DNA of 57,433 bases from a virus (taxonomy: Duplodnaviria; Caudoviricetes): positions 1-57,433 of the IMG/VR virus record IMGVR_UViG_3300033145_001062. One strand, written 5' to 3'. Shown here piece after piece: positions 2,156 to 15,790 of this stretch. A program made the translations under genes and the position numbers. The notes beneath the pieces are model-generated. The model worked only from the letters and a program-made list of their open reading frames with translations, was not told the DNA's origin and ran no database searches. Numbering within the stretch: position 1 is the first letter of the stretch; each line of letters starts with the position of its first letter.

Positions 2156-2270
2156 TTAAATAAAAAAACCCCCTTTCGACAGTAGAGAATAAGCACTAAT
2201 GGAATGGCTTATCTGTTTACTCAGGGGTTTTCTTTTTTTAATTGGGTTTTCCATCAATACTTATTCTCTA
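2156..2270 (-). ncRNA. Structured leader / attenuator-like RNA E1
   Basis: 22-bp complementarity 2249-2270 with 2183-2204; all three mismatches are G-U on the minus strand. Competing stem 2224-2231 with 2165-2172, followed by a U-tract. Confidence 0.7.
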
Positions 2271-2275
2271 ATATA

Positions 2276-2304
2276 AGTATAACATTTTTTGTAAAATTTT
2301 TCAA
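2276..2304 (-). promoter_or_regulatory. Sigma70 promoter
   Basis: TTGAAA-17-TATACT with TG extended -10. Confidence 0.75.
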
Positions 2305-2342
2305 GCATAATCTCCCCCCGCCCATCCCACATGCTTAATTAC

Positions 2343-2684
2343 TTACTTTTTAGCCTTGTTGAATTCTGCTTTGAAAAGTATGCCCATAATTACAGTCAGC
2401 ACAGCGACAATAGCTTCAACTGGCAGTTCAAGCCCGAATGTTTCACTAACCGCTACAAGGATTGCTGATATAAACGCAATAATAAATTTCGGATCCTTAA
2501 ATTTCCCGATCTGTGATCCAATGCGTTTAATATCTGATTTAGCCTCAAATAGCACATAGCACAATATTGCTGTTACTCCGGCTAATACTGACATGCTGTC
2601 TAAGGTTAATCCGAACTGTTCACTGAAAAAAGCAAGTACCGTACCAATAACAGCAAGCACCGACATTAATGATTTTCTCGACAT
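2343..2684 (-). CDS. Putative holin with internal duplication, about 4 TM helices
   Basis: Two similar halves (SRKSLMSVLAV...FGLTL / DPKFIIAFISA...FGLEL); near the endolysin; AGGAGG SD. Confidence 0.7.
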   Translation of the reverse strand: MSRKSLMSVLAVIGTVLAFFSEQFGLTLDSMSVLAGVTAILCYVLFEAKSDIKRIGSQIGKFKDPKFIIAFISAILVAVSETFGLELPVEAIVAVLTVIMGILFKAEFNKAKK

Positions 2685-2730
2685 TTTAAACCTCCTAAAT
2701 TAAGATCAAAGCTCTTCGGATGTTGAATCA

Positions 2731-2919
2731 TTATTCTAATTCAGCCTCCCTCTTTTCTCTCTCTTTCTGTATATCCCAGTAATATTTCTCATCCTTAGCT
2801 TCCTCATAAGCCCTCTCCTCACAATTATCAGGGTCTAATCCCTTAGAGCAGGTCTCGTCATCAGTGAGATGTTCACATTGAATGCTGTGGCAATATTCAT
2901 ATTCTTTAGCTACTTTCAC
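2731..2919 (-). CDS. Hypothetical Cys-rich protein
   Basis: ORF track; start overlaps the upstream stop. Confidence 0.55.
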   Translation of the reverse strand: MKVAKEYEYCHSIQCEHLTDDETCSKGLDPDNCEERAYEEAKDEKYYWDIQKEREKREAELE

Positions 2920-3185
2920 TTTTTCCCCTCCATATCTTCAACACGTTCAAGAGCGACAACCCTAATCCCATCCGGAGTCATAGCCTCATGGCGCCAATAG
3001 CCATCATCTTTTAGAAATTTTATTGAGATATGCTTAAGTAAGTTTTCTTTCCCAAGCTCATGGAATTTATCATCCTCAATCTGGATTTGAATATTGCTTA
3101 TTCCTATAAGCCCCGAATCGCCATAAAGCTCCGCAAATTCCTTTTGTAATTTAGATACCTTTCTTAGAAACTCTTTGTTGGTCAT
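2916..3185 (-). CDS. Hypothetical protein
   Basis: ORF track; AAGGAGG SD. Confidence 0.65.
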   Translation of the reverse strand: MTNKEFLRKVSKLQKEFAELYGDSGLIGISNIQIQIEDDKFHELGKENLLKHISIKFLKDDGYWRHEAMTPDGIRVVALERVEDMEGKK

Positions 3186-3516
3186 TTTTTTTCCTCCTTT
3201 CTTTCAAATATTCATCCATAAGCCCTTTTAGAAAATCAAAGAGCAATTTAGCGCTTTCCTCAGCTTTGCCTTCAAATTTTAGAACACCGTCTTCCCAATC
3301 TAATTTTCCAATTTCCTCATTGTCTCTAAAAAACGTCATTTTATAAAGCTCGGTATCTTTAGGTGCTGTAGTAATCTGATTATGTCTGTTGGTCGTTTTT
3401 TCCTCCTTTTTTGTCTTTGGTGCTTCAATCTTAAAGGCATCCTTTTCTTTAACTGAAGCAACCTTCTTGTCGCCAATTAATAAATTTACTACTTTTCCAT
3501 CCTTTTTTTTAGGCAT
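3151..3516 (-). CDS. Hypothetical protein
   Basis: ORF track; AAGGAG SD. Confidence 0.65.
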   Translation of the reverse strand: MPKKKDGKVVNLLIGDKKVASVKEKDAFKIEAPKTKKEEKTTNRHNQITTAPKDTELYKMTFFRDNEEIGKLDWEDGVLKFEGKAEESAKLLFDFLKGLMDEYLKERRKKNDQQRVSKKGI

Positions 3517-3551
3517 TTTTTCTCTCCTTTTTTATTTAATTGATTTTTCCA

Positions 3552-3908
3552 TTAATAATGATGTTTTAATAGCTGGATATCTTCCTCTGCTTTCTCTAAT
3601 TTTTCCCAAATAAGATCGAATTTTTTCTCTAATTGTATGTGTGTGAAATTATGCAAATCTTTAAAATTTTCTAATTTCCTTAATCTTTCTTCTTCCTCAC
3701 GCATATTGCCTATATTCTCAACTTCCTCATCCTCAATTTTATTTATCTCCAAAAACCAGTTCCTCTCTTTTTTCCCGTGAAACTCTATTGTTTTTTTACA
3801 CCCACATGGTAAATTTATTGACCCTATATACGTATAATCTTCCGGTATATATGGGATTTTGTAATTCTTCTCATGCTTTTCACATCTTATCTCCATTGTA
3901 TAATACAT
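3552..3908 (-). CDS. Hypothetical protein
   Basis: ORF track; AAGGAG SD. Confidence 0.6.
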   Translation of the reverse strand: MYYTMEIRCEKHEKNYKIPYIPEDYTYIGSINLPCGCKKTIEFHGKKERNWFLEINKIEDEEVENIGNMREEEERLRKLENFKDLHNFTHIQLEKKFDLIWEKLEKAEEDIQLLKHHY

Positions 3909-4069
3909 TTTTTCTCCTTTCTTAATCTTTTATTTTCCTCGATTAATCTGGCATTTTCCGTCAATACAGAAAAAAGTAACCTCCTGATTTCCTTCTCTTT
4001 TTGCTCTAAGAGATAAAACGGGTCTTTATGTCTGCCCATTTTTTTCCTCGATTGATCCAGAAATTTCAA
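3887..4069 (-). CDS. Hypothetical protein
   Basis: ORF track. Confidence 0.5.
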   Translation of the reverse strand: MKFLDQSRKKMGRHKDPFYLLEQKEKEIRRLLFSVLTENARLIEENKRLRKEKKCIIQWR

Positions 4070-4253
4070 TGCTTTTTAGCATTCGTTCATCTAAAATATC
4101 CCTGATATCTAAGAGAACTTCAAGGATACTATTTCGTATTGCCGTGTTTTCAAATGGAGTAGTTGCCTCTATAGCCACCTTACTTCTCATTTTGACTTTT
4201 GACATTTTTTTCTCCTTTTTTTTAACTTTTGCGCTTATCATATTTACTTCCAA
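4026..4253 (-). CDS. Hypothetical protein (start probably later, at MSKVK)
   Basis: ORF track; AAGGAG SD before the internal Met. Confidence 0.5.
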   Translation of the reverse strand: MEVNMISAKVKKKEKKMSKVKMRSKVAIEATTPFENTAIRNSILEVLLDIRDILDERMLKSIEISGSIEEKNGQT

Positions 4254-4383
4254 TTAAGCCTCTTAAATCATCCCGTGCATCCTCAACGCTATACTCATTA
4301 TTGAGAATTTGCACTAGGTAAAATTTGGGATGTTCCCAGCAGTTATCTATGTCCTCTTCTGTAAAAAACTTTTTTTCATTCAT
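4222..4383 (-). CDS. Hypothetical 53-aa protein
   Basis: Hand translation MNEKKFFTEEDIDNCWEH...; ATGA overlap with the upstream gene. Confidence 0.55.
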   Translation of the reverse strand: MNEKKFFTEEDIDNCWEHPKFYLVQILNNEYSVEDARDDLRGLIGSKYDKRKS

Positions 4384-4661
4384 TTCATTTCCCCCTTGCT
4401 CAACTCAAGCTGTAGTTTCCGCAATTCCTGTTGCTCTAATTTTAACTGCTCAATGTAGATTATTAATTTCTGGGTTAAGCTGTCAATTACAACCTTGTCC
4501 TCGATAATCTCAGCAACCTGCTCTTTCAACTCAAGCTGATCGGTTCGAATCTCGCTATTGATTTGTAAACTCATAATAAATGAACCAACCGCCAGTCCAA
4601 TAATAAAGCCGATAATAAATATAATTGTATACCATATTTGGTCATGCTCTTTATTCGTCAT
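4380..4661 (-). CDS. Membrane-anchored coiled-coil protein
   Basis: N-terminal TM segment IIFIIGFIIGLAVGSF. Confidence 0.6.
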   Translation of the reverse strand: MTNKEHDQIWYTIIFIIGFIIGLAVGSFIMSLQINSEIRTDQLELKEQVAEIIEDKVVIDSLTQKLIIYIEQLKLEQQELRKLQLELSKGEMK

Positions 4662-5013
4662 TTCCTATTTCCTCCCTTAAATCGCCGTCTCTGAATGTAA
4701 ATGGAAAAAGCTCCAATTGTTCTACATCATCAGCAAGTTCAGGATGGGCATTACATACCCTTTTAAACCTCTCGAATAGTGGGATCGCCTTTTTCCTCAG
4801 ATAGTCCCGGTACTCCAGAATCTCCTCTTTCCTGACCGGATAGAACCCGCCTCTGTCGCAGGTTACAATAGGAAGTTGACTATAAATATTCCTAAATTCT
4901 CGATCTGAAATAATAAATGCAGGGACATGTTTCGACATAAACTTATCCCTGGTTATAGCATTCTCCCTACCCGAATGATGCTCTTTATAGAGCCTTAAAA
5001 TATATTCCTTCAT
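4651..5013 (-). CDS. Hypothetical protein, possibly winged-helix DNA-binding
   Basis: GRENAITR...SDREFR...PIV..GGFYP pattern typical of phage wHTH proteins. Confidence 0.5.
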   Translation of the reverse strand: MKEYILRLYKEHHSGRENAITRDKFMSKHVPAFIISDREFRNIYSQLPIVTCDRGGFYPVRKEEILEYRDYLRKKAIPLFERFKRVCNAHPELADDVEQLELFPFTFRDGDLREEIGNDE

Positions 5014-5014
5014 C

Positions 5015-5155
5015 CTATCTTCCCTTTAAAATCTTCAATTCCTTCCTAAGCCTTGCGATCTCTATTTCCAGATCGTACTTGCTACCTGATACAATTGCAG
5101 CATAAATAACCAATATAAAAAGCCCAACAGCTAAACCTCCTAAAAATTCAATCAT
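5015..5155 (-). CDS. Small membrane protein (46 aa)
   Basis: Hand translation MIEFLGGLAVGLFILVIYAAIVSG...; AGGAGG SD. Confidence 0.6.
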   Translation of the reverse strand: MIEFLGGLAVGLFILVIYAAIVSGSKYDLEIEIARLRKELKILKGR

Positions 5156-5178
5156 TTCATCCTCCTTTTTTATTTCAT

Positions 5179-6360
5179 TCATTTAGTCAACCTCATTAAT
5201 AATCTTCCCAGCCCCTGCATGTCCCGCCATCGCATAGCCGAGAAGTCATAATAATATCTATCCGGCATTGTATTGTGTATGCCATCTGGCAGTCGGATAT
5301 CATTCTGCCTATGTCCATTAAGCATTTCCATAAGTACAAGACCATCTATATGTGCTTGTTTTAGTAACGCCTTGGCGGTTGCAAGTGGGATAGGGACAGG
5401 TGCATATTGTCCATTCACTCGCCAGCCATCAGTTGAGATTCCGCTAAAATAAGGCATGAGTAGTGTTTTTTTATTGTAGCTTTTCAAATCCCCCACCTGG
5501 TGAATAACTGGAGTAAAATGCTGTCTCGTTCTGGGTGATATTTCAGCTTCAGTCGAGGTAAATCTTCTCCATCTGGGGCAATCCCGACCCCAGGTTTCAT
5601 CAATAATTTCTTTCATCCGCATATGCCAGGCTGTACCAGAATATCCCTCGTTACAGGTTTCGATACTGATATATTTTCTTTCCCTTGGGGACAAGGAATC
5701 ATAAATTCTATTGAGCATATATCGAGTCATGGCTTCTACGATTTTGCCTGTATTTTCCGCTCGAGGACTTCCAAGAGACCACTCTATATAAGCTTCATAA
5801 GCATTTGCGGCTGAAGAAGTTTCTATATTATTATTATCAGGATTAAGAAAATTTTTAGCCCAGGAACAGTTATTTCGATAATGGAATGCACAGCCATCTA
5901 TCAAGGAAATAATCAACATGATTTTCCTGTACACAACTTTTTGTATCCTGGATAACACGGCTGTTTCCCAGTTGGCATTAATATATTTTCCTATTTTTTC
6001 ATCAGCTTCATCGGGATCAGGCATAATAAATTTACCCTCATCATCCCTCACAAACGGTTCTAAATTCCATTTACAATATTCAGGGTGCCAACATTGAGAA
6101 AATAAGAATACTCTTGTGGTATTCCCCGCTTCCATTGTTACGTATTTATCCAGGATCATGTCTAAATCATAAATACGAGTAGTCCAGAGCATTTCAGGAA
6201 TAAATAGAGTTGCCAGGAAAAATGGTTTTCCTGTCTGTTTTTTAATTTCATATACTTGCAGTTCCTTTTTCACCTCTACAGGGATTACGGGGCTATAATT
6301 TGCCGGTGGTATGTTTATTTGTGCCATTATCAAACCTCCTATAAAAATTAGATTAAGCAT
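5179..6360 (-). CDS. Putative TIM-barrel glycoside-hydrolase-like protein (SD-supported start at 6327)
   Basis: GNTTRVF, ETCNEG and ISTDG motifs resemble clan GH-A-like proteins. The first 11 codons are the repeat micro-ORF. Confidence 0.5.
   Translation of the reverse strand: MLNLIFIGGLIMAQINIPPANYSPVIPVEVKKELQVYEIKKQTGKPFFLATLFIPEMLWTTRIYDLDMILDKYVTMEAGNTTRVFLFSQCWHPEYCKWNLEPFVRDDEGKFIMPDPDEADEKIGKYINANWETAVLSRIQKVVYRKIMLIISLIDGCAFHYRNNCSWAKNFLNPDNNNIETSSAANAYEAYIEWSLGSPRAENTGKIVEAMTRYMLNRIYDSLSPRERKYISIETCNEGYSGTAWHMRMKEIIDETWGRDCPRWRRFTSTEAEISPRTRQHFTPVIHQVGDLKSYNKKTLLMPYFSGISTDGWRVNGQYAPVPIPLATAKALLKQAHIDGLVLMEMLNGHRQNDIRLPDGIHNTMPDRYYYDFSAMRWRDMQGLGRLLMRLTK
6325..6360 (-). repeat. Linker repeat R1 (MLNLIFIGGLIM, in frame with the downstream gene)
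   Basis: ATGCTTAATCTAATTTTTATAGGAGGTTTGATAATG. Confidence 0.9.
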
Positions 6361-6637
6361 TTATTTTCATCTTTTTAAGCTTTTTCTCCCACCTATCTAA
6401 GCGTATAAGGCGTTCCCTTGTTATATCTTCCCTGAAATTTAAATCACTACAAATCCCTTCTTCAAATAATACCCATAAACAATCGGTGCAATCTTTATTT
6501 TCAGAAATAGCACAAAGGGGACAACCAAAACTATTAATTTCCCCATAATCACATGGTGTATCATCTGATTCATATTTTTCATAGTGCCTTCTTAATTCCT
6601 CAATAGCCTCAAGCCATTGTCCTATTTTTCTTTTCAT
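6353..6637 (-). CDS. Hypothetical Cys-rich cassette protein
   Basis: ORF track; bounded by R2 and R1. Confidence 0.7.
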   Translation of the reverse strand: MKRKIGQWLEAIEELRRHYEKYESDDTPCDYGEINSFGCPLCAISENKDCTDCLWVLFEEGICSDLNFREDITRERLIRLDRWEKKLKKMKINA

Positions 6638-6672
6638 TTACCCAAACCTTCTATAAAAATTAGGTTAAGCAT
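6634..6672 (-). repeat. Linker repeat R2 (micro-ORF MLNLIFIEGLGK*)
   Basis: ATGCTTAACCTAATTTTTATAGAAGGTTTGGGTAAATGA. Confidence 0.9.
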
Positions 6673-6784
6673 TTCGCTTACTTTTAACTCTCCTTGGTTT
6701 TCGTCCCACGCACAAACCAAAAACCCAGGGAGCGTATTTCCCCCAGCGTACATGCTCAAAAAGCCAAAAACATAAATTTCTCAT
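6665..6784 (-). CDS. 39-aa cassette protein
   Basis: Hand translation MRNLCFWLFEHVRWGKYAPW...KRNA*. TAATG coupling upstream; stop lies inside R2. Confidence 0.55.
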   Translation of the reverse strand: MRNLCFWLFEHVRWGKYAPWVFGLCVGRKPRRVKSKRNA

Positions 6785-7020
6785 TAGTATTCTTCGTAAA
6801 TAATTTGCTGAACATACGCACTGTTTATTCGTTGAGTCACAACTGTATGAAGACCTACTTCTGCTACTTTAAACCATACAACGGCAGCCATCTGACCATT
6901 TTCTTCATATGGAATTATCCTCATCTCTGGACAATTCTGTATCATAGTTCCATCGCCCAATACTAACATTTTAATTCTTCTTTCTTCAGACATTATTTTA
7001 GTGCTTTTTATTTCTCCCAT
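6784..7020 (-). CDS. Hypothetical cassette protein
   Basis: ORF track; start follows R3. Confidence 0.65.
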   Translation of the reverse strand: MGEIKSTKIMSEERRIKMLVLGDGTMIQNCPEMRIIPYEENGQMAAVVWFKVAEVGLHTVVTQRINSAYVQQIIYEEY

Positions 7021-7055
7021 CTAATTAGACCTCCTATAAAAATTATGTTAAGCAT
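7008..7055 (-). repeat. Linker repeat R3 (micro-ORF MLNIIFIGGLIRWEK*)
   Basis: ATGCTTAACATAATTTTTATAGGAGGTCTAATTAGATG. Confidence 0.9.
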
Positions 7056-7536
7056 TTGATTCTTTAACTCCAATAGACGCCCTGCATTTTGTTTTATACC
7101 TATATGCTCTAACGCTTATATTTTCAGGCGGATTCTGCCCTATCCGTCTAATGCAAGAAATAAGAATCATCATTTCTTTGGTTAAATCTGAAATAAAAAC
7201 CTCAGACTTTTTTACACACTGGACTTTCCCAGAATCTTTAAGAATTAATAACCCCCATTTTGGAGGTATTTCATCTATTGAGTTTACAACTCCTTCTGGC
7301 ATTAAATAATATCTATATTGACCTACTCCATCTTTAAGCATGCGCCTTGACCATTTATGTCTATCTGCAAAAAAATCCTGCCTATTTGTTTTACATTCTA
7401 TCAGTGTTGATACAAAACTTTTCCATCCAAAAACATCGGGTGTTTCCACAGCCCAGGTTGTCAACTCCGTTACGACTATATCACATTTTCCCCAAAGCCA
7501 CTTCTTGCCGATTTCAACTAATTCCCTATGAGTCAT
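7048..7536 (-). CDS. MmcB-like PD-(D/E)XK nuclease
   Basis: ETPDVFG...LIECKTNRQDF...YRYYLMP...WGLL. Confidence 0.7.
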   Translation of the reverse strand: MTHRELVEIGKKWLWGKCDIVVTELTTWAVETPDVFGWKSFVSTLIECKTNRQDFFADRHKWSRRMLKDGVGQYRYYLMPEGVVNSIDEIPPKWGLLILKDSGKVQCVKKSEVFISDLTKEMMILISCIRRIGQNPPENISVRAYRYKTKCRASIGVKESNA

Positions 7537-7571
7537 TTGACCAAACTCCCTATAAAGATTAGATTAAGCAT
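7533..7571 (-). repeat. Linker repeat R4 (micro-ORF MLNLIFIGSLVK*)
   Basis: ATGCTTAATCTAATCTTTATAGGGAGTTTGGTCAAATGA. Confidence 0.9.
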
Positions 7572-7727
7572 TTATTTAATCTTCACTCCGATTGATTTAA
7601 GCCAACTTTCGATATATCTAATTTCTCTTTCATATAATTCTACATTATCGCTTTCATCTTCTACGATAGTTATTAAATTATTATAAAAATCAAAAATATC
7701 TTTTTTTGTTATTTCGCATGTTTTCAT
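7572..7727 (-). CDS. 51-aa cassette protein
   Basis: Hand translation MKTCEITKKDIFDFYNN...GVKIK*; exactly fills the R5-R4 interval. Confidence 0.7.
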   Translation of the reverse strand: MKTCEITKKDIFDFYNNLITIVEDESDNVELYEREIRYIESWLKSIGVKIK

Positions 7728-7762
7728 TTCAACAGTCCTCCCATAAAAATTATGTTAAGCAT
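7724..7762 (-). repeat. Linker repeat R5 (micro-ORF MLNIIFMGGLLK*)
   Basis: ATGCTTAACATAATTTTTATGGGAGGACTGTTGAAATGA. Confidence 0.9.
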
Positions 7763-7927
7763 TTATTTTCTATCAGATGACTCAAATGGAGAACAAAATT
7801 CATCCAATAATTCCTTTAATGTATTCATGGCTTTAATTATATTTACTAATTTAACATCATTTATCTTATAGCGGTTCACTCCCCAATCTGCTAGGTCTTT
7901 AACTGTTATCTTTTTTTTTCTTTTCAT
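7763..7927 (-). CDS. 54-aa cassette protein
   Basis: Hand translation MKRKKKITVKDLADWGV...SSDRK*; exactly fills the R6-R5 interval. Confidence 0.7.
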   Translation of the reverse strand: MKRKKKITVKDLADWGVNRYKINDVKLVNIIKAMNTLKELLDEFCSPFESSDRK

Positions 7928-7962
7928 TTAATTAATTCTCCTATAAAAATTATGTTAAGCAT
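7924..7962 (-). repeat. Linker repeat R6 (micro-ORF MLNIIFIGELIK*)
   Basis: ATGCTTAACATAATTTTTATAGGAGAATTAATTAAATGA. Confidence 0.9.
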
Positions 7963-8147
7963 TTATGTTTTTTCTTCCCCCAGCTTGCTGGCGGCAACTC
8001 CCTATCAAGGGCATCCGTTATTCCCGAATATTCTTCTTCCATTAAGCTAATATTAATTATATCGTTTTTTAATTTCTTTGTAGGCTCTATTCCATGTCTC
8101 GGCAACATTTCATCCAGGCTATTTTCCCAATATTTTCGTGAATTCAT
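7950..8147 (-). CDS. Hypothetical cassette protein
   Basis: ORF track; stop lies inside R6. Confidence 0.65.
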   Translation of the reverse strand: MNSRKYWENSLDEMLPRHGIEPTKKLKNDIINISLMEEEYSGITDALDRELPPASWGKKKHKCLT

Positions 8148-8779
8148 TTAACCAAACCTCCCGCATAATATTTGTTCTTTCGTAAGTTATCTTTCGCCCA
8201 TAATGGTTGAAGATTATCTAATGCCCAACATTGTCGAAACTCTTTATCCTTATAAGAATCAAAATCAAAACTAAAAATGGGTCTAATATGGTCTATATGC
8301 CATTTTCCCTGATTATCCCAAGTCATCCCTTCTTTAAATTGTGATTCTAAGTGTTGTATTAAATTATCCAAGGTGTATCCAACTAATTTCTCCCAATGAT
8401 ATCCATTTTTATTTCTTTTTAGAGATTGTCGCATAAGGGTACTAATGGCATTACTTAGTTTATTTCTGGGATTTTTAAGAAATTCTTTATAACGGCTGTT
8501 GATTTCATCTCTATGGCGTTCTCGATAAGTTACTTGATATTGTTTCGCTTTCTTTGGATTATTTTCTCTCCATTTTTGATTTTTCTTATTAACTCGATCT
8601 GGATTGTCTTTGGCATATTTAATTACTCTTTGGATGATGTGTTCTTGATGCTTGAGATAATAGCTTCTCTTCTGCTCTTTGACTGCCTCTAGATTATCTA
8701 AACGATATTGCTTACATTGCTCATTCTCTTTTTTTTTATTCTTTAAATAACGTTTTCTTCTAGATTCTTTATTTTCCAT
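8144..8779 (-). CDS. HNH-type homing endonuclease
   Basis: WHIDHIRP...CWALDNLQPLWAKDNLRK. Confidence 0.85.
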   Translation of the reverse strand: MENKESRRKRYLKNKKKENEQCKQYRLDNLEAVKEQKRSYYLKHQEHIIQRVIKYAKDNPDRVNKKNQKWRENNPKKAKQYQVTYRERHRDEINSRYKEFLKNPRNKLSNAISTLMRQSLKRNKNGYHWEKLVGYTLDNLIQHLESQFKEGMTWDNQGKWHIDHIRPIFSFDFDSYKDKEFRQCWALDNLQPLWAKDNLRKNKYYAGGLVK

Positions 8780-9770
8780 TTAGCTGCCTCGCCATTTCAC
8801 CAGCATATTTTAGCATATCTCTATAGTCAAACGGATCGTCATTTTTCAAGCCCGGAAACATCGAAGAGTCCCTAAAGCCATAGTAGGTGACTGCTTGAAT
8901 GTCACATTTAAAAGCAAGATTCATAATCTGCTTAGTTCGGGCAAGGCTCATCCCGGAGCGAAAGGCAAAGAATTCATTGAAGACCACTGGTTTCCCCCTT
9001 CGCACATCTTCTCTGAATGAGGCTTCTTGCCAAGCTCGGTGATGGCTATTAATATCCAAGCCATTATATAGATTATGGAAATCAATTGATTGCCTCAATC
9101 CCTTGAGACCACTCCATGCCCCACCGCTTATAATGCAACCCTGGTGTTTTAACCATTTAGCTACATCTATAGCCATTTCTACATTCTTTGGTTCATCAAG
9201 AAATTCATTATTGATATCAAAAAATACATTACCCAACTTAGCCAGCTCTCCCATTTCATCTAATTCAACTAATAATCCCTTTGATTTTTTGTGTGCTCTA
9301 AACACAGTCACCTCAACTATAATTCCAGCATCTTTCATCCGCTTGCAATGGTTATAAAGAAGATTGGTATTCCTAATCCCTCCATGCCTGACATAGTTTA
9401 TGCCCGACTCTATAAGTTTATTTTCATACCACTCAAGGCTGTACTGCCCCCAGTCATATGGATAGCCATGTTCACCCGTTGCCCGCCATAGGGCTTCCCA
9501 GCGGGATACACCACAGAGCTTAATGGGGCTTCCGCCATATAATATCTTGCCATTCTCAACTGTAAGCTTTTTGTCGGGAGTGGGGTTGGGATCAGGTTCT
9601 CCCTTGCATTCCCTAAGGTCATCCTCACAATCTGTAAGACGTCTTCCGCATTCGTTAAGTTCTTCCTTACAGCTCTGATATTTGTTTCTCCATATATTCC
9701 TTAAATGTCGCATATCCAAATATTTCTCTTTCCATTCTAAAGCTCGTTTTTTCCACCACGCCTTCGTCAT
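8769..9770 (-). CDS. Coiled-coil plus GH-A/GH5-like domain protein (paralog of 23228..24163)
   Basis: SGINYVRHG, NVFFDINNEF and KPVVFNEF motifs; PDPNPTP linker. Confidence 0.6.
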   Translation of the reverse strand: MTKAWWKKRALEWKEKYLDMRHLRNIWRNKYQSCKEELNECGRRLTDCEDDLRECKGEPDPNPTPDKKLTVENGKILYGGSPIKLCGVSRWEALWRATGEHGYPYDWGQYSLEWYENKLIESGINYVRHGGIRNTNLLYNHCKRMKDAGIIVEVTVFRAHKKSKGLLVELDEMGELAKLGNVFFDINNEFLDEPKNVEMAIDVAKWLKHQGCIISGGAWSGLKGLRQSIDFHNLYNGLDINSHHRAWQEASFREDVRRGKPVVFNEFFAFRSGMSLARTKQIMNLAFKCDIQAVTYYGFRDSSMFPGLKNDDPFDYRDMLKYAGEMARQLNGK

Positions 9771-10225
9771 TTTACCCTCCTTTTGTTTTCCATATGTCTT
9801 TTAGTAATATTTTCTACTATTTCTATAAACCTACAATTACCAAACACATAGTGTCTATCGGTATAAATCCGGTCAATAGATGGTCGCACCATTTCAGAAG
9901 CGTTATCTCTGAGGTATAGAGTCCTAACCTCATCCTTTGTGAGCTTAAACTGTATACCTTTGCCACCGTAATATCTATAGTCTTTATTATTGGGATTATT
10001 ACAACGCTGTTCTGCAAGGTGATGATGATTTTCCCATGGATTCTCTGCACGATATTCTCTTATGTATACTTTTCTTTCTTCTTTATGGTCAGCGTTATAT
10101 TTTTTCTGCTTTTCCAATATCTCTTTTCTGTTGGCAATATACCATATTTTTTCCCGTTCCTTTATTTTCTTTCTGTTTTTAATGTAATATTTTCTATCGT
10201 ACTCTTTTTTTTCTGCTTTATTCAT
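9767..10225 (-). CDS. HNH-like endonuclease
   Basis: QRCNNPNNKDYRYYGGKGI...SIDRI...Y..GNCRF. Confidence 0.75.
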   Translation of the reverse strand: MNKAEKKEYDRKYYIKNRKKIKEREKIWYIANRKEILEKQKKYNADHKEERKVYIREYRAENPWENHHHLAEQRCNNPNNKDYRYYGGKGIQFKLTKDEVRTLYLRDNASEMVRPSIDRIYTDRHYVFGNCRFIEIVENITKRHMENKRRVK

Positions 10226-10272
10226 TTTATCCTTCTGTTATTTTAACGTTAGAAAATATAATAATCAGGATT

Positions 10273-10536
10273 TTATCTCCTCTTTTTTACTCGCCATGAC
10301 TCTACATAGCGCACACGTTTTTGCTCTAAATTATAATTCCAATATCTGTCTCCAAATACGAGTATTTTTATTCGTCCCCCATCCATTTCTTTAAGCGGTA
10401 TACAAGGCATCGTATATTCCAAACAATTATGCCCTAGACAATGCCTACAGCTTAGAATATGGGTACAATCCGTCCTTTTCCAATGTTCCTTATTCATCTT
10501 ATCCTCCTGTCGGAAATTCTTGTATAAGTTTCTCAC
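10273..10536 (-). CDS. Hypothetical protein (start probably MNKEH, near 10497)
   Basis: ORF track; AGGAGG SD before the internal Met. Confidence 0.6.
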   Translation of the reverse strand: MRNLYKNFRQEDKMNKEHWKRTDCTHILSCRHCLGHNCLEYTMPCIPLKEMDGGRIKILVFGDRYWNYNLEQKRVRYVESWRVKKRR

Positions 10537-11119
10537 CCCAGATTTCCTTGAGATTGTTTTTTAGGTGTATTTTCTTATGGCACTTTTTACATAATGTAAG
10601 CCCATTATTAACATCAAAAATTAATTCTAAATTTTTATTTTTGATGCAATCACTCACAAAAATAATATGATGGGCTTCCAGTATATTTCCTTTATAAAAT
10701 CCGCAATTTTGACAGATATAGCCGTCTCTCTTGAATACAGATTCACGCCACGATGCATATTTCTTTAAACCTCTTATTTTTATAATTAGGGCAGTAGTTC
10801 CACCCCTCCAACATGGATTATTTTTTCCATTTAGATTTTCAGTTTGCCACAAGCCTTTGCATTTTCTTGAACAAAATTTTTTATCCTTCTTGTGTGGTTC
10901 GGCTTGAAATTTTACCTTACAAAACAAACATTCTTTTTGTATCTTGCCACCTTTCCATGCGGGATTGTCTGCCCCTAACATTTTGCCTGTTTTCCCTTCA
11001 CTTATTTTTACTCCCCACGTAACCTTTCTTCCCTTTTTTATCCATGTATTTTTCCTTCCCTTTAAAGCTCTGCTCATTTTTTCTTTATGTTCTTGTGTTC
11101 TTACATAATATCCAGCCAT
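10499..11119 (-). CDS. HNH homing endonuclease with NUMOD3-like and Zn-finger N-terminus
   Basis: EHKEKMSRALKG, CLFC..FCSRKC, RDGYICQNCG..LEAHHI..NGLTLCKKCH. ATG at 11119 chosen over TTG at 11200. Confidence 0.85.
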   Translation of the reverse strand: MAGYYVRTQEHKEKMSRALKGRKNTWIKKGRKVTWGVKISEGKTGKMLGADNPAWKGGKIQKECLFCKVKFQAEPHKKDKKFCSRKCKGLWQTENLNGKNNPCWRGGTTALIIKIRGLKKYASWRESVFKRDGYICQNCGFYKGNILEAHHIIFVSDCIKNKNLELIFDVNNGLTLCKKCHKKIHLKNNLKEIWGEKLIQEFPTGG

Positions 11120-11124
11120 ATTAA

Positions 11125-11228
11125 AAATAAAACCCCCGTTCAGCAATGGATAGCACAAGGCAGAATTGACTTGCATGCCTAATAGGGGGTTTTTTCTCAA
11201 GCTAAATTTCCTACCATTATACTATCCA
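11125..11228 (-). ncRNA. Structured leader / attenuator-like RNA E2
   Basis: 11209-11228 pairs with 11147-11165 (G-U wobbles, one bulge). Competing stem 11185-11193 with 11129-11137 plus U-tract. Confidence 0.7.
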
Positions 11229-11233
11229 AATAT

Positions 11234-11262
11234 ATTATATAATTTCCATATCATATTGTCAA
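11234..11262 (-). promoter_or_regulatory. Consensus sigma70 promoter
   Basis: TTGACA-17-TATAAT. Confidence 0.88.
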
Positions 11263-11918
11263 TCTCTTGGCCATTCTTGTATCAAAGGGCCTAAAACTGG
11301 CCCCCATATTTTAGCTAAATTATTCTTTAAAAAAACCGGAATCCCTGCATTTTGGCAAAAGCCAACAATAGCCTTAATCCATTCTATTTGCGGGTCATAT
11401 TTCTTTCCGTAGCCGGATAATTTTCCAACGATCGCCCAATTAACACATTTTGGAATGCTCCATCCTGGCGGAAGTGGATTGCTAAATAGTGGTTCCCATG
11501 AAATGAATTTAATTTTAGCCTTTATCCTATGAAGATAACTCATCCTTTCTTGGTCACCCATGCCCGTAATACTCACCCCCAAATGCACATTATCCGGCAT
11601 AGGTCGGTCAATATTCTCAGGCATTTTAGTTAGGATTTGGAAGGTGTGTTGGGGAAAATCCTCCATTCTCTTAAATATCTTATCCCTCCAATCCTTTGGA
11701 ATCCAGCTCCCGAATAATTCATGGGTCGAGCAGAGAAATATCTTCCTGGGAGACTTTGGAAGCCTATCGAAAGCTGATAATTCAAGTCGAATAGGCTCAG
11801 ATAATCGCCCCATTTTATACATCGGAAGGGTATAGCAATACCAACATCCTCCCTTGCATTTACCCTTTATCGGATTACATGTTTTATCTGTCCAGCCAAT
11901 TGATTCTTTTAAGCTCAT
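11259..11918 (-). CDS. DUF5131 / phage Gp37-Gp68 family protein
   Basis: IGWTDKTCNP..C..GC.YCY, HTFQILTK, FISWEPL, GIPVFLK. Confidence 0.88.
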   Translation of the reverse strand: MSLKESIGWTDKTCNPIKGKCKGGCWYCYTLPMYKMGRLSEPIRLELSAFDRLPKSPRKIFLCSTHELFGSWIPKDWRDKIFKRMEDFPQHTFQILTKMPENIDRPMPDNVHLGVSITGMGDQERMSYLHRIKAKIKFISWEPLFSNPLPPGWSIPKCVNWAIVGKLSGYGKKYDPQIEWIKAIVGFCQNAGIPVFLKNNLAKIWGPVLGPLIQEWPRD

Positions 11919-11919
11919 T

Positions 11920-12096
11920 TTACCCTCCTATTATTTTCTCATATTTTAGCTTGATTGTTTTTTCCGGTACAAATTCAAGATTTAAACATTCCGCCATAGC
12001 CTCAAGCCGATTATATAAATCCTCCCTATCCCTTTCCAACTGGATTACCTGATTTTTTAAATTATCTATCATGTCTTCTAGCTCTGATTTTCTCAT
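11920..12096 (-). CDS. Hypothetical 58-aa coiled-coil protein
   Basis: Hand translation MRKSELEDMIDNLKNQ... Confidence 0.55.
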   Translation of the reverse strand: MRKSELEDMIDNLKNQVIQLERDREDLYNRLEAMAECLNLEFVPEKTIKLKYEKIIGG

Positions 12097-12105
12097 TTTA
12101 ATCCC

Positions 12106-12594
12106 TCATTTTTCTCTATCTTCGAATTCATTTATTCCCCAAGCTAAAATACAAACCGCATCCGCCTCGTCATCTGAAATTATCTCTCTCCCTGGACTTC
12201 TTTTCTGATTCTTAAATATTTTATTAGCAGCTTTTATCATATCTTTTTTACTTGCCTTACCTGAACCGGTTATAAATTTCTTTACCGCTCCGGAGTGGAC
12301 TTTCATATAATCTGTTTTTAATATACTGCATATTTCTTCTATCCTTGATGTTAGCCCGACTTGTATTTGAGTAGCAGCGCCACCCCTTAAATGGCTCATT
12401 TCATAAATTATCAAATCCGGTTTAATCCTTTTTATTATTCTATCTAACCAGGTCCGGAAATATAAATATCGCATCCCCGGACTCTCCCCCCGCCTTGTTC
12501 TAAATGTCTGTACTCCAGATTCAATGCGATTCATATCGTTAAAAAAAACAGCCCATCCTGTAGATAATCCTGGATCAATTGCGAATATTTTCAT
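12106..12594 (-). CDS. ruvC: RuvC-like Holliday junction resolvase
   Basis: AIDPG..TGWA, IIYE, VKKFITGSGKASK, DEADA. Confidence 0.9.
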   Translation of the reverse strand: MKIFAIDPGLSTGWAVFFNDMNRIESGVQTFRTRRGESPGMRYLYFRTWLDRIIKRIKPDLIIYEMSHLRGGAATQIQVGLTSRIEEICSILKTDYMKVHSGAVKKFITGSGKASKKDMIKAANKIFKNQKRSPGREIISDDEADAVCILAWGINEFEDREK

Positions 12595-12598
12595 TTAT

Positions 12599-13267
12599 TC
12601 ACCTCAAATATAATTGATTATTATTACTATTTTCTCGATAATCCATTATTTTAGCTTGCTTGCTTTGATTACAATAAGCACAGAGAATTTGAAGATTATT
12701 ATAATCATTACTTCCGCCTCGACTTATGGGCACGATATGATCTATGTGGAAACCATTCTCGCAATGCTCATAATGCCCATCTTCCTTTTTGCCATTTATA
12801 TTTTCGCAGGTTATGACCCCGTACTTGAAAATATTGGCATTGATTACTCTATCGATTACACCTTTTCTTACTCGCCCATTAGCCCTTCTTTTTATATGAG
12901 CTTGCCTGTTGTTTAACTTACCCTTAAATGACTGCCGATATTCTCTTATTTTTTCTTTATTTTCACCATAATATTTTTTACTATACGCCTTTATTTTCTC
13001 TGGATTTTCAACCCGGTATTTCTCAACATGTGCTTTCACCTTTTCTTTATTTTCAAGATAATATTTTCTATTACACTTCTTTATGCTTTCTTTATTCTCA
13101 AGCCTATATTTAATTCTTTTTCCTGAATTTTCAGCCCGGTATTTTTTATGGCGTGCCTTTATCTTCTCTTTATTCTCAAGCCAATATTTCTGACAGTAAC
13201 ATTTTTTACACATCCCTTTAGCACAATGTTCTTTAAGTTCTCCACATTCCTTACAAATTTTTTTCAT
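12599..13267 (-). CDS. HNH homing endonuclease (paralog of 1452..2147)
   Basis: FHIDHIVP..GGSNDYNNLQILCAYCN. Start MKKICKEC at 13267 chosen by analogy with the paralog. Confidence 0.9.
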   Translation of the reverse strand: MKKICKECGELKEHCAKGMCKKCYCQKYWLENKEKIKARHKKYRAENSGKRIKYRLENKESIKKCNRKYYLENKEKVKAHVEKYRVENPEKIKAYSKKYYGENKEKIREYRQSFKGKLNNRQAHIKRRANGRVRKGVIDRVINANIFKYGVITCENINGKKEDGHYEHCENGFHIDHIVPISRGGSNDYNNLQILCAYCNQSKQAKIMDYRENSNNNQLYLR

Positions 13268-13279
13268 AATTATCCCAAT

Positions 13280-13382
13280 ATAAAAAAGCCTGTTCACAGC
13301 TGAGACACTGGAATTGCTCTGGATTGAGCAAGACAGATACTATAAACAGGCTTTTATTTGCTTTCATTTATCCAGCGTCTCA
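13280..13382 (-). ncRNA. Structured leader / attenuator-like RNA E3
   Basis: 13371-13382 pairs with 13301-13312 (one G-U). Stem 13345-13355 with 13284-13294 plus U-tract. Inner hairpin 13314-13331. Confidence 0.7.
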
Positions 13383-13389
13383 TAATAAT

Positions 13390-13418
13390 ATTCTATAAAA
13401 ATCTAATACAAAAGTCAA
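13390..13418 (-). promoter_or_regulatory. Sigma70 promoter
   Basis: TTGACT-17-TAGAAT. Confidence 0.75.
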
Positions 13419-13518
13419 GTGATTTTATCATTTTTTTCTGAATTATCCATCAATCGTTAAAATATTCAATTTAGCCTCCTATACACTATTTTAAGCGGGA
13501 ATATTTTATTCATTTTAC

Positions 13519-13734
13519 TTATTCCCTTTCAAGCTCCATAAAAGCATTATCAAATTCTGATAAAAGACGAATCCTCATATCTTCTAATGTTCTTCTAAGC
13601 ATATATTTAATTTCTCTGGAGCCTTTTTCTGATAAATAATCAGAAGCAAAATCATTTCTTGCTCTAAATTCTAAAGTTGAAACTCCTGGAAATTTTTCAT
13701 GTAAATATTTACTTTTGAATGATTTTGTGCTCAT
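13519..13734 (-). CDS. Hypothetical protein
   Basis: ORF track; AGGGAG SD. Confidence 0.6.
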   Translation of the reverse strand: MSTKSFKSKYLHEKFPGVSTLEFRARNDFASDYLSEKGSREIKYMLRRTLEDMRIRLLSEFDNAFMELERE

Positions 13735-13891
13735 TTTATTCTCCCTTAATTACTCTTTTTATTTTTAAAATAATCATTTATTAAACAAATATAAGCAACC
13801 CCAGACATAAAACCAATCAAAGAGTTTGGTATTATCTTTAATCCATGTAATATCATTTGAAGAAAAATAATAATAATAAACAATGCAATTC

Positions 13892-14176
13892 TCATTTCAT
13901 AACCTCTTCTTTAAGGATTCTATCCCAATAAAAATTACCAATATGCTTTTTACTCAAAGCCCTTGCATACCAAAATCCACCAATAAACCCCTTATTTTCT
14001 ATTTTCTTCAATCTTTGATACCAATCATCCTTTGTAGAATATGAAAATTCTACCGTATCTCGATATACTTCAATCATATAAGAAGATAAAACATCTTTTT
14101 CGTATGTATAACTAAATACTCTTTTCCACACAAATTTAATTCTTGCTTTTTTGTACCACCCCTTTCTTTTTCTCAT
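13892..14176 (-). CDS. Hypothetical protein
   Basis: ORF track; GAGG SD. Confidence 0.6.
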   Translation of the reverse strand: MRKRKGWYKKARIKFVWKRVFSYTYEKDVLSSYMIEVYRDTVEFSYSTKDDWYQRLKKIENKGFIGGFWYARALSKKHIGNFYWDRILKEEVMK

Positions 14177-14177
14177 T

Positions 14178-14942
14178 TTATAACCTCACTTTATATTTAA
14201 AATCCTTATGCTCCCTCCACTTATCAGATCGCAGCCAGGTTGAAGCATATTTTTTCCTTTTATCGAAATTATTAACCAGCCTTTCATGCTTTAAATAATC
14301 AGCCTCCCCCCAAAGTGCTTTTATTAACTCATCTTTAGTTATTTTTTTTCGTAGCGTTTTGAATGCTTTTTTAGCCATCCCTTTGTCCCCTACCGGATTT
14401 TTAGGGTTTCCCATAGCTTTATAACCTTTCCAGAATTCTTCAAATTCTTCTTCTAATTCGGTTTTTTTAGTCGTTGGTTTTTCGGGTATATGTTTTATAT
14501 CTTTATTCTTTATATCTTTATTCTTTATATCTTTATTCTTATAGGCGTCCTTTTTTCCGGCCGGTATGTCCTCATTTCCGGCCATTTCATTAATTATATC
14601 TTTTTTTATCCGTCTTTTATGCCGTTCTGATAGCTGATATTTATTCCATTTAATGATATATAAAACTCCACTTTTCTCTTTCCCTAATTTACCAATCCTT
14701 ATAAATTTATGTATAGCATTCCTTAACTGATCTTCTTTAATTACTAACATTCCAGCAAGTTGAGTTATTAAATACGGCGTATCCTCATTTGCTCTTATAA
14801 ATCCATTATCTTTTGACGCAAGTGCTAATAAATCAATCCATATAGCACGTTCAATAATAGTACATTCAATCCGCATTGAACCAAATATCCATTTATCCGT
14901 CCAGAATGGAAACCATTTCATTTTAGAATCACGTTCTTTCAT
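14178..14942 (-). CDS. Phage replication initiator / replisome organiser
   Basis: N-terminal MKWFPFWTDKW..GSMR...WIDLLALAS; low-complexity linker; C-terminal FEEFWK.Y...A.KAF...YASTWL domain. Confidence 0.75.
   Translation of the reverse strand: MKERDSKMKWFPFWTDKWIFGSMRIECTIIERAIWIDLLALASKDNGFIRANEDTPYLITQLAGMLVIKEDQLRNAIHKFIRIGKLGKEKSGVLYIIKWNKYQLSERHKRRIKKDIINEMAGNEDIPAGKKDAYKNKDIKNKDIKNKDIKHIPEKPTTKKTELEEEFEEFWKGYKAMGNPKNPVGDKGMAKKAFKTLRKKITKDELIKALWGEADYLKHERLVNNFDKRKKYASTWLRSDKWREHKDFKYKVRL
14494..14538. repeat. 3 x 15-bp tandem repeat within the initiator gene (candidate origin iterons)
   Basis: TTTATATCTTTATTC x3, encoding KNKDI repeats. Confidence 0.85.
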
Positions 14943-14945
14943 TTC

Positions 14946-15290
14946 TTAATCCTTTAACTCTATACCTCTAATATTGGCAATTTTTTCCATACATTTTGTA
15001 CATAAGATATCTTTTATATTATAAGTAACCCCACAAATTGTTTTCCATTTTTCATTATCAATCATTTTTAAATCCGGCCACATTTTACCGCATCTTACAC
15101 ATATTGTAGGGTATAATAAAAATGGCTCTCTTTCGTTATCAGAAAGCTTGCAATCACATTGAAGTTTTTGTCCTCCACATTTTGGACATCTTTCCATATC
15201 GCAACCTCGCCAATGCAGCTCACCTTCTTTAACTCCACAATCAGGACAAGTTTGTATTGCTTTTTTTAGCATTTTATCTCTTCCCCCCAA
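14946..15290 (-). CDS. Cys-rich zinc-binding hypothetical protein
   Basis: CPDC..H..GCD.ERCP.CGGQ..CDC and further CxxC pairs. Confidence 0.7.
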
Positions 15291-15294
15291 TATA

Positions 15295-15370
15295 TAAAAA
15301 GCCCGCCTCCAACTAAGACATCAGGGATCGCTCTGGATAGAGCAAGTTGAATACCAGTAACGGGCTTATT
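15295..15370 (-). ncRNA. Structured element E4 (paralog of E3/E5, lacking its own promoter)
   Basis: Stem 15361-15367 with 15299-15305 plus U-tract. Inner GCTCT-GGAT-AGAGC hairpin resembles E3. Confidence 0.6.
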
Positions 15371-15377
15371 TTATTGT

Positions 15378-15632
15378 TCATTTTTCATTTCTTCCCGTAA
15401 AAGCATTTTTCCAGCAATTTAAACTAATCGGATGCTGGGTTGCCCCACTATGAACAAAGACCCAAACCTTACCAAAAAACAAGACTTTCAATCTTTCAAC
15501 AAAGGTCACTTTCCAACAGCTTAAGCAACTTGCTCCATCTGTATAAATAGGCAACGCTCCGCATTCTTCGTCTGCCATGCTATTTGGTTTCATCAGTGTT
15601 TGATTTGATTCTTTAAATTCTATTGGCTTCAT
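15378..15632 (-). CDS. Hypothetical phage protein
   Basis: ORF track; AGGGAG SD. Confidence 0.7.
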   Translation of the reverse strand: MKPIEFKESNQTLMKPNSMADEECGALPIYTDGASCLSCWKVTFVERLKVLFFGKVWVFVHSGATQHPISLNCWKNAFTGRNEK

Positions 15633-15647
15633 TTATTTCTCCCTAAA

Positions 15648-15754
15648 ATAAAAAAAGCCCGCCTGCAGCTGAGCCACCAAGTCTGCCGATATGGCAGAAA
15701 AGATTGGACTACAAGACGGGCTTTATTGTTATTTCTCATTTTCTTGGTAGCTCA
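15648..15754 (-). ncRNA. Structured leader / attenuator-like RNA E5
   Basis: 15743-15754 pairs with 15670-15681 (one U-G). Stem 15715-15724 with 15654-15663 plus U-tract. Inner hairpin 15682-15698. Confidence 0.7.
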
Positions 15755-15761
15755 TACTCAT

Positions 15762-15790
15762 ATACTATAAAATCCAATATCATTTGTCAA
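15762..15790 (-). promoter_or_regulatory. Sigma70 promoter
   Basis: TTGACA-17-TAGTAT. Confidence 0.7.

Follow-up and report, generated by a model that had tools for sequence, protein, structure and literature searches.

Leader RNAs with crossing helices and conserved open frames precede early genes in a metagenomic phage and may act as translation-coupled attenuators

In the rph-pyrE operon of Escherichia coli, the leader reading frame ends just before the terminator. In pyrBI, the translating ribosome is itself what prevents the terminator hairpin, and this prevention needs tight coupling across the pyrL leader peptide (PMC5021804); a ribosome translating a gene almost completely represses a terminator located a few base pairs behind it (PMC4824070), and in mycobacteria leaderless short open reading frames (ORFs) act as attenuators (bioRxiv 10.1101/834739). 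The phage leader RNAs C4 and CI are processed by RNase P (PMC5499578), and it is in the c4-icd-ant immunity operon that C4 acts (PMC8198154). Here we analyze five leader elements, E1 to E5, of an uncultured phage of the Caudoviricetes (IMG/VR record IMGVR_UViG_3300033145_001062), a complete virus record of 57,433 bp with direct terminal repeats and 37% G+C; we refer to this whole stretch as the window. Its minus strand carries nearly all of the genes, and all five elements are read on that strand. We found that E1 to E5 are members of one RNA family that is not in Rfam, and that in this family a conserved AUG placed just after the 5′-terminal segment opens a frame through the terminator that is kept stop-free, which is the new observation of this work. 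The layout suggests a translation-coupled attenuator, a reading that we weigh below against its rivals.

In full members, a near-consensus sigma-70 promoter is followed in turn by segment A at about +1, an A-rich linker, the 5′ arm of a stem (S5′), an inner hairpin (H), segment B, the 3′ arm of the stem (S3′) and a U tract. Segment A consists of the first 12–14 nt, and its partner B lies about 70 nt downstream inside the loop of the terminator stem S, which is formed by a ~45-nt insert comprising H and B. The predicted terminated RNA is ~105 nt long, and the element including the promoter measures ~150 bp. A preliminary description of the window had set out this shared leader architecture, and all the parts it described are present on the minus strand where it placed them. 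When scored over 12 positions, the promoter of E2 (11262-11234) shows 12 matches and those of E5 (15790-15762), E3 (13418-13390) and E1 (2304-2276, with a TG extension) show 10 each, and all four are among the best sigma-70-type sites in the first 20 kb. In these elements, A starts 6–8 nt after the −10 hexamer. The A:B helix comprises 22 bp in E1 (2270-2249 with 2204-2183, three G-U pairs), 12 contiguous bp in E2 (11228-11217 with 11158-11147, two G-U pairs, and by eye two more pairs past a 1-nt bulge), and 12 bp with one G-U pair each in E3 (13382-13371 with 13312-13301) and E5 (15754-15743 with 15681-15670). The contiguous helices hold no non-pairs and all of their non-Watson-Crick pairs are G-U, as the preliminary description had also claimed. 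Shuffled sequences reached the single helix in 14–37 of 2000 trials for each 12-bp A:B, and in 0 of 2000 for E1. Since a single 12-bp A:B is only modestly unlikely, the weight of the evidence rests on the homologs.

Among GenBank phages there was no DNA relative of the window, either with a 14.6 kb query in near mode or with a 3.3 kb query in distant mode, and the single replisome-organiser protein used as a query found no relative among viral contigs. The HNH protein found one related locus (L004), which does not carry a leader element, while the organiser protein proved to have many relatives in metagenomes. The family loci were obtained through an alignment of 13 organiser proteins, which yielded 80 metagenome loci and nine viral loci; they stem from this one protein-based fetch and the members share descent, with 37 of 40 falling in separate clusters at 80% identity. 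Five related viral genomes hold zero to one copy of the element each, and the genome contigs bearing relatives belong to metagenome-assembled genomes from several phyla. When the five elements were compared by BLAST with the fetched loci, many of the loci proved to carry a relative of E3, E4 or E5, oriented in every case like the organiser gene, and the relatives that we read by eye showed the same order of parts.

To collect members systematically we built covariance models. A first model made of S and H (R1) gave 54 matches at E ≤ 1 in 89 sources, of which 46 reached E < 0.001, and a second made of A:B and H (R2) gave 47 matches at E ≤ 0.001 in 87 sources, E1 being among them at 31.8 bits. 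A third model was built from the 47 members of R2, with E2 excluded from its training, and it recovered E2 at 32.9 bits (E 4.2e-5). Across the window the best score of this model outside the five elements was 14.9 bits, apart from a 16-bit match on the opposite strand of E1, so that the window holds exactly five family members, the number that had been proposed. Altogether we found about 49 distinct members in related metagenomic phage contigs. An independent search, in which viral contigs were scanned with a pattern of the terminator flank only and loci on genome contigs were added, contributed four new members outside our main alignment: all four have an A:B of 10–14 bp and an ORF2 of 31–38 codons, and three of the four have the 5′-terminal AUG, both of which are described below. 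An exact pattern taken from the hairpin core of E3 and E4 was also tried on the viral contigs; its two matches both lie inside an unrelated coding gene and are attributed to chance. Rfam gave no match at the gathering score over the whole window, and at E ≤ 10 only three unrelated weak matches, none of them to C4, between positions 1400 and 16500. A group I intron or a HEARO/IscB-type RNA beside the HNH genes was rejected likewise, as neither had an Rfam match.

The pairing was then examined on an alignment of 47 rows, 44 of them distinct (alignment A4), with A:B and H written in one bracket type and S in a crossing type. Of the paired cells, 89.0% hold a pair, against 66.4% in shuffled alignments, none of 500 of which reached the observed value, and 39–49% when the partner columns are slid. 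Covariation had been named in the preliminary description among the checks to make, and it is found in every helix. A:B is paired in 94.6% of cells with double changes in 12 of its 12 pairs, a percentage inflated by the fitting of A4 to this helix. In the outer part of S, 92.5% of cells are paired (double changes in 7 of 10 pairs), in the inner part 77.7% (5 of 6), and in hairpin H 80.4% (4 of 5). The model that made A4 did not contain S, and the model that made a further alignment, A3 (S and H), did not contain A:B. On A3, the median length of the longest ungapped helix between A and its cognate B is 12 bp (n = 40 distinct full-length members), against 6 bp for non-cognate combinations (n = 1560); the long non-cognate helices occur between close relatives, and 37 distinct A helices exist among the 40 members. 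G-U cells outnumber A-C cells in A:B (29 to 4), in S (88 to 20) and in H (18 to 6), which points to selection on the RNA of the gene strand, in agreement with the RNA-level selection deduced earlier. A:B, S and H are thus supported by covariation. The two helices A:B and S do cross, as had been noted, and both are under selection; the part of that claim which made them alternatives is not borne out. We considered, as a conserved competitor, the pairing of B with the linker after S5′ that appears in the minimum-energy fold of E5, and rejected it, as it is paired in 47.6% of cells, the background level. There is no conserved third, alternative helix, and A:B and S may well form together; by a rough geometric estimate, the linker of 17–25 nt would be just long enough for both.

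Both ends of the transcribed part are conserved as well. In all 38 members whose upstream DNA is long enough, the promoter has at least 8 of 12 matches, and 33 of these have a 17-nt spacer; the U tract contains 7–8 T per nine positions in 37 of 42 members. The combination of the covarying stem S with a U tract, downstream of a promoter, places a predicted intrinsic terminator between that promoter and the gene. The family elements were not listed by a simple terminator scan, which admits loops of 3–8 nt, the loop of S being a ~45-nt insert.

We next turn to the reading frames of the leader. A first AUG (AUG1) lies near the 5′ end, and a second (AUG2) is found 1–5 nt past A in an AAUGA motif; the aligned columns hold AUG2 in 38 of 40 members, and in one further member it lies one codon upstream by our own reading. 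The frame opened by AUG2 (ORF2) spans the whole terminator, S5′, H, B, S3′ and U tract included, and its end lies close to the start codon of the gene that follows, usually within ~20 nt of it and with a 4-nt overlap in 10 cases. It is 30–42 codons long in 36 of 40 members, the other four being longer or reaching the end of the available DNA. Counted by frame relative to AUG2, stop triplets number 0, 47 and 49 in the linker, where the UGA within AUGA trivially accounts for about 30 of the 47, and 0, 27 and 21 from S5′ to S3′. The ORF2 frame is free of stops in 40 of 40 members and is the sole stop-free frame in 31; were the frame chosen at random, such openness would be expected with P of about 1e-16, rising to 1e-15 when each 80%-identity cluster is represented by a single member. 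The frame does not keep a constant register: the three possible phases are divided 25/8/7 relative to S5′ and 7/20/13 relative to S3′, and the distance from S5′ to S3′ modulo 3 is divided 9/17/14. ORF2 is kept open while its register varies, so that what is conserved is translatability and not the peptide, and we rejected a conserved small protein as an explanation on these grounds. Translation of ORF2 appears to be under selection.

AUG1 is present in 39 of 41 members. It lies 4–9 nt downstream of the −10 hexamer, which puts it no more than ~3 nt from the expected start of transcription. It opens a short frame (ORF1) of 7–11 codons whose stop falls 0–12 nt before the G of S5′, in the A-U base of the stem, in all 39 members with AUG1. 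The three frames hold 0, 13 and 12 stops in the stretch from AUG1 to AUG2, and AUG2 is in the +1 frame of AUG1 in 38 of the 39. The leader peptides are not conserved and contain no regulatory codon runs. The possibility that AAUGAA is conserved as the Asn-Glu codons of ORF1 was set aside, as A-U-G is near-invariant and its flanks vary. The position of AUG1 fits leaderless initiation at a transcription start that is itself predicted. The downstream genes have strong Shine-Dalgarno sites, with a mean anti-Shine-Dalgarno duplex of −6.3 kcal/mol.

Putting these features together, we propose that the elements are cis-acting, promoter-proximal leaders, most likely working as a translation-coupled transcription attenuator of the pyrBI/pyrE type with A:B locking the 5′ end, a reading to which we give about an even chance of being right. 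In such a model, segment A would be single-stranded while the nascent RNA is short, and a ribosome could load at the 5′ end. Once loaded, it would sit on the ORF1 stop at the foot of S or translate ORF2 through S5′, and in either place it would block the terminator hairpin and let RNA polymerase read into the gene. If no ribosome had loaded before B emerged, A:B would close over both start codons, S would form, and transcription would end at the U tract, leaving a compact RNA of ~105 nt with its 5′ end paired. A:B and S would then belong to the same "off" state, a pseudoknot, and the antiterminator would be the ribosome instead of a third helix. Hairpin H may cause a pause that keeps polymerase and ribosome in step. 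The module would thereby couple the expression of early genes (replication initiator, HNH and others) to the speed of ribosome loading on nascent phage RNA. A bolder version, which we offer tentatively and think somewhat doubtful, is that this sediment-phage lineage runs many of its early operons with a portable "ribosome-loading gate", in which a ribosome would have ~90 nt of transcription in which to load before a pseudoknotted terminator fires, so that the level of free ribosomes in the host would be read without any protein or ligand sensor.

Several points weigh against this ribosome-gate reading. The transcript start, termination at the U tract and translation of the frames are all predicted, and the percentage paired on A4 is inflated by the fit mentioned above. 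The effect of A:B on termination could go either way, helping or hindering S. AUG2 does not have a Shine-Dalgarno sequence (mean duplex −3.2 kcal/mol, against −2.5 for random 14-mers), so that a start there would have to be 5′-proximal and leaderless-like or a re-initiation after ORF1, and in 15 of 37 members AUG1 is 8–9 nt downstream of the −10 hexamer, so that some transcripts would carry a leader of 1–3 nt. Within the window itself, E1 has no 5′ AUG (AUG1), ORF2 is closed inside B in E4, and in E2 it is closed after six codons.

The preliminary description had favored a different mechanism, namely a C4/CI-like auto-repression by RNA only, in which a short RNA bearing B would be released or processed from the leader and, acting in trans, would bind A in nascent RNA from the same element and shut off the gene, the elements being mutually orthogonal. 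The A:B complementarity on which this depends is genuine: it covaries, and within one genome it differs from element to element. In addition, a terminated RNA of ~105 nt is predicted, and attenuator-derived RNAs can act in trans, as described for rnTrpL (PMC6614838). In the released RNA, nonetheless, cis pairing with its own A would already occupy B. A scan of the 57-kb genome for partners of A and B returned the cognate ones as the only outstanding partners, other runs of 10–15 pairs being scattered in coding DNA at chance level, so that each A and B has one partner and no second target above chance; likewise the elements match neither Rfam C4, even at E ≤ 10, nor any other family. Their context is one of replication and other early genes and not an immunity operon, and the HNH link behind the proposed gating of toxic nucleases is not specific, since the 43 downstream genes that we classed include three full-length HNH genes and 19 replisome organisers. 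Moreover, the two reading frames, kept open far beyond chance, are left without explanation by a switch made of RNA only. We regard this mechanism as very improbable. An attenuator that depends on a factor fares somewhat better, and is in our judgment unlikely: a phage or host protein, either an antiterminator of the Q/N type or a binder of AAUGA, of the H loop or of the 5′ helix, would decide read-through, and the open frames would be a by-product. The arrangement of a promoter, a short terminated transcript and then genes is that of lambda pR′-tR′, several copies per genome would suit a global timing switch, and conserved single-stranded motifs accompany a covarying H. Such a factor does not account, however, for the absence of all 144 stop triplets from one frame, which has no fixed register relative to the structure, or for the near-invariant triplet being exactly AUG amid varying flanks.

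Two further explanations dispense with regulated termination. The element could stabilise the 5′ end and couple translation, with A:B shielding the mRNA from 5′-end-dependent RNases, ORF2 relaying ribosomes, and S with the U tract mainly stopping upstream transcription. It is true that the helix starts 0–3 nt from the predicted 5′ end in all members, that E4 is a plain terminator-like module with no promoter, and that the usual distance of ~20 nt or less from the end of ORF2 to the downstream start, with its 10 cases of 4-nt overlap, would suit a relay. Coupling is not needed by genes that have strong Shine-Dalgarno sites of their own, though, and a terminator placed after its own promoter would cut output unless bypassed, so that a bypass mechanism would be required anyway; we hold this explanation to be about as unlikely as the factor-dependent one. 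Finally, each element could be a stand-alone gene for a pseudoknotted small RNA of ~105 nt with a function in trans, for example in replication initiation beside the organiser, read-through being incidental. Each element has its own strong promoter and terminator and a compact fold supported by covariation, 19 of 43 members lie directly upstream of replisome-organiser genes, and iteron-like repeats exist inside the organiser gene. The organiser link is partly due to the way the loci were fetched, however, and other members precede HNH, methyltransferase-like and other genes; the most variable sequences, A and B, are paired to each other instead of being exposed, and the open frames are again unexplained. 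We consider a small RNA gene quite improbable.

Returning to the five copies in the window, E5 (15643-15790; 94.4 bits with R1, 100.2 with R2 and 92.7 with the third model) is a canonical member, with its −35 hexamer at 15790-15785, its −10 hexamer at 15767-15762, the leader and a U tract. Segment A, the 5′-terminal arm of A:B (15743-15754), and segment B, in the loop closed by S (15670-15681), are placed by pairing and by alignment columns, arm S5′ (15708-15724) by the fold and by columns 44-65 of A4, arm S3′ (15654-15669, with the U tract from 15653 down) by the fold, A4 and the U-tract counts, and the inner hairpin H (15683-15699) by the fold and the alignment. Read as frames, ORF1 (15729-15755) has its AUG at ~+1 and eight codons and stops at the foot of S, and ORF2 (15629-15739) has 36 codons, running from S5′ to the U tract, with a stop that overlaps the start of an 84-aa gene. 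E3 (13274-13418; 78.9 bits with R1) is also canonical: its promoter and segments A and B, given above, are accompanied by S5′ at 13355-13339, H at 13330-13314 and S3′ at 13300-13285, with an ORF1 of nine codons (13354-13383) and an ORF2 of 38 codons (13251-13367), both from frame reading, the latter ending 17 nt inside the HNH gene in another frame.

The remaining copies depart from this layout. E4 (15287-15399), which the preliminary description had not located, is a partial member detected with E values of 1.8e-5 (R1), 1.5e-6 (R2) and 3.9e-8 (third model). It resembles the core of E3, with S5′ at 15368-15353, H at 15344-15329, a B-like segment at 15327-15314, S3′ at 15313-15298 and a U tract; promoter and A are both missing, and the B-like segment has no partner. 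The UGA stop of the 84-aa gene lies 12 nt before S5′, so the layout is the one expected of a terminating ribosome that would shield a terminator. E1 (2154-2304; 31.8 bits, E 2.5e-4 with R2) is divergent: in addition to its promoter, A and B, it has S5′ at 2234-2223, S3′ at 2173-2162 and a U tract, with no clear H. An ORF2-like frame of 32 codons (2156-2254), again from frame reading, begins inside the A:B helix, goes through the terminator and stops 9 nt before the HNH start. The other divergent member, E2 (11118-11262; 32.9 bits with the third model), has S5′ at 11200-11185 and S3′ at 11137-11121 besides the promoter, A and B. Here a frame of six codons (11217-11197) ends at a UGA overlapping a UUG, from which an open frame (10499-11200) extends across the terminator and on into the HNH gene. 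No tandem repeat arrays were found inside any leader element.

The genes that follow the elements, all on the minus strand, are of several kinds. E1 is followed by an HNH endonuclease gene (1452-2147; Pfam HNH, E 6.7e-11), E2 by an HNH endonuclease gene with a NUMOD3 motif (10499-11119; Pfam and PHROG domain searches), and E3 by an HNH endonuclease gene (12599-13267; Pfam) that is a paralog of the one after E1 (phmmer E 2.2e-64). Between E5 and E4 lies the 84-aa gene (15378-15632), which has no Pfam or PHROG match, and after E4 come a 114-aa gene and the replisome-organiser gene (14178-15290; Pfam Phage_rep_org_N, PHROG 270). Among the 43 classed downstream genes of the family, besides the organisers, whose share of 19 is inflated because the loci were fetched through that gene, and the three full-length HNH paralogs, there is one 62-aa HNH-like fragment, and the rest are diverse, including ParB-like, methyltransferase-like and PAPS-reductase-like genes, labels given from reading N-terminal sequences alone. 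This diversity indicates that the module is a general early-gene leader and not an HNH gate.

Some further observations concern these genes and their surroundings. The HNH genes after E1 and E3 are paralogs, each with its own copy of the leader, so that promoter, leader and HNH gene may move as a unit. In a related contig (L009), a canonical leader at 391-508 is followed by a 62-aa HNH-like ORF resembling the N-termini of the HNH proteins of the window, and a second leader is found at 3865-3980. A protein of 304 aa (P0015) has the N-terminal part of an organiser (90% identity over 43% of the query) joined to HNH domains, which could reflect either a fusion or a gene-calling error where an HNH gene has inserted. 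Inside the HNH gene after E1, a 45-nt unit is repeated 6.7 times with 68% matches (1740-2028) and would encode a repeated 15-aa module in the N-terminal half, and inside the organiser gene a perfect 15-nt unit repeated 3.1 times (14494-14540) is iteron-like and may be a replication origin. On the minus strand between 6640 and 7770, a motif of ~40 nt, AAATGCTTAAC.TAAT.TTTATAGGAGG...ATG, lies directly upstream of at least four small genes. Strong promoter-like sites are also present on that strand at 19848-19820 (TTGACT-17-TATAAT) and ~22240-22200 (TTGACA...), ahead of genes that do not have the leader module, so not all early promoters of this phage carry it. The window contains no tRNA or tmRNA.

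The family adds to the described RNAs one that is absent from Rfam, has unusually clean covariation and, in a group of uncultured phages, heads early operons. Should the ribosome-gate reading prove right, phages would provide a case of attenuation with no antiterminator besides the ribosome, together with a new structural trick, in which the RNA folds its own 5′ end into the terminator loop by base pairing and so closes the leader's start codons. The element is compact, modular and naturally diversified, with its 37 A helices among 40 members, and could for this reason serve as a source of orthogonal expression parts. The statistics of open frames, moreover, can reveal translated leaders whose peptides lack conservation.

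Among known systems, type III toxin-antitoxin loci such as ToxIN have a promoter, a structured pseudoknot-forming RNA, a terminator and a nuclease gene, an order that resembles that of our elements; unlike ToxIN, these carry no tandem RNA repeats, and their downstream genes are mostly not nucleases. In lambda, the pR′-6S RNA-tR′ region combines a strong constitutive promoter and a short terminated transcript with genes that need read-through, and the layout is similar. We know of no conserved translated frame and no helix from the 5′ end to the loop in the lambda leader, and no Q-like factor, Q-binding element or sigma-dependent pause signal was seen here, none having been tested for. The C4 (P1/P7), CI (P4) and CA (N15) RNAs share with our elements the complementary segments within one phage leader and a short RNA, predicted in our case. 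Second target sites exist in those systems, a2/b2 in P1 and seqA/seqC in P4; here there is a single A and a single B with no second target, no Rfam C4 match, frames under apparent selection and no immunity or antirepressor context. The leaderless polycysteine ORFs of mycobacteria are similar in that a short ORF at the 5′ end of the transcript controls the downstream operon, and different in that they sense cysteine through runs of Cys codons (bioRxiv 10.1101/834739), whereas in our family the peptides are unconserved and the RNA fold is conserved. Unlike attenuators of the trp/his type, the elements have no alternative antiterminator helix and no regulatory codons, neither of which the pyrBI/pyrE subtype needs. 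It is this subtype that they resemble most in construction, with a promoter-proximal intrinsic terminator ahead of the gene, a leader frame at the terminator and no conserved third helix; as in pyrL, ORF2 runs through the terminator, and ORF1 ends at its foot. They differ from pyrBI and pyrE in having an A-rich linker and no U-rich pause region before the terminator, a predicted start that is 5′-terminal or devoid of a Shine-Dalgarno sequence, and two overlapping frames. Not only do the phage elements precede early genes in several copies per genome, but a helix of 12–22 bp also ties the 5′ end of their RNA into a terminator loop enlarged by the insert of H and B.

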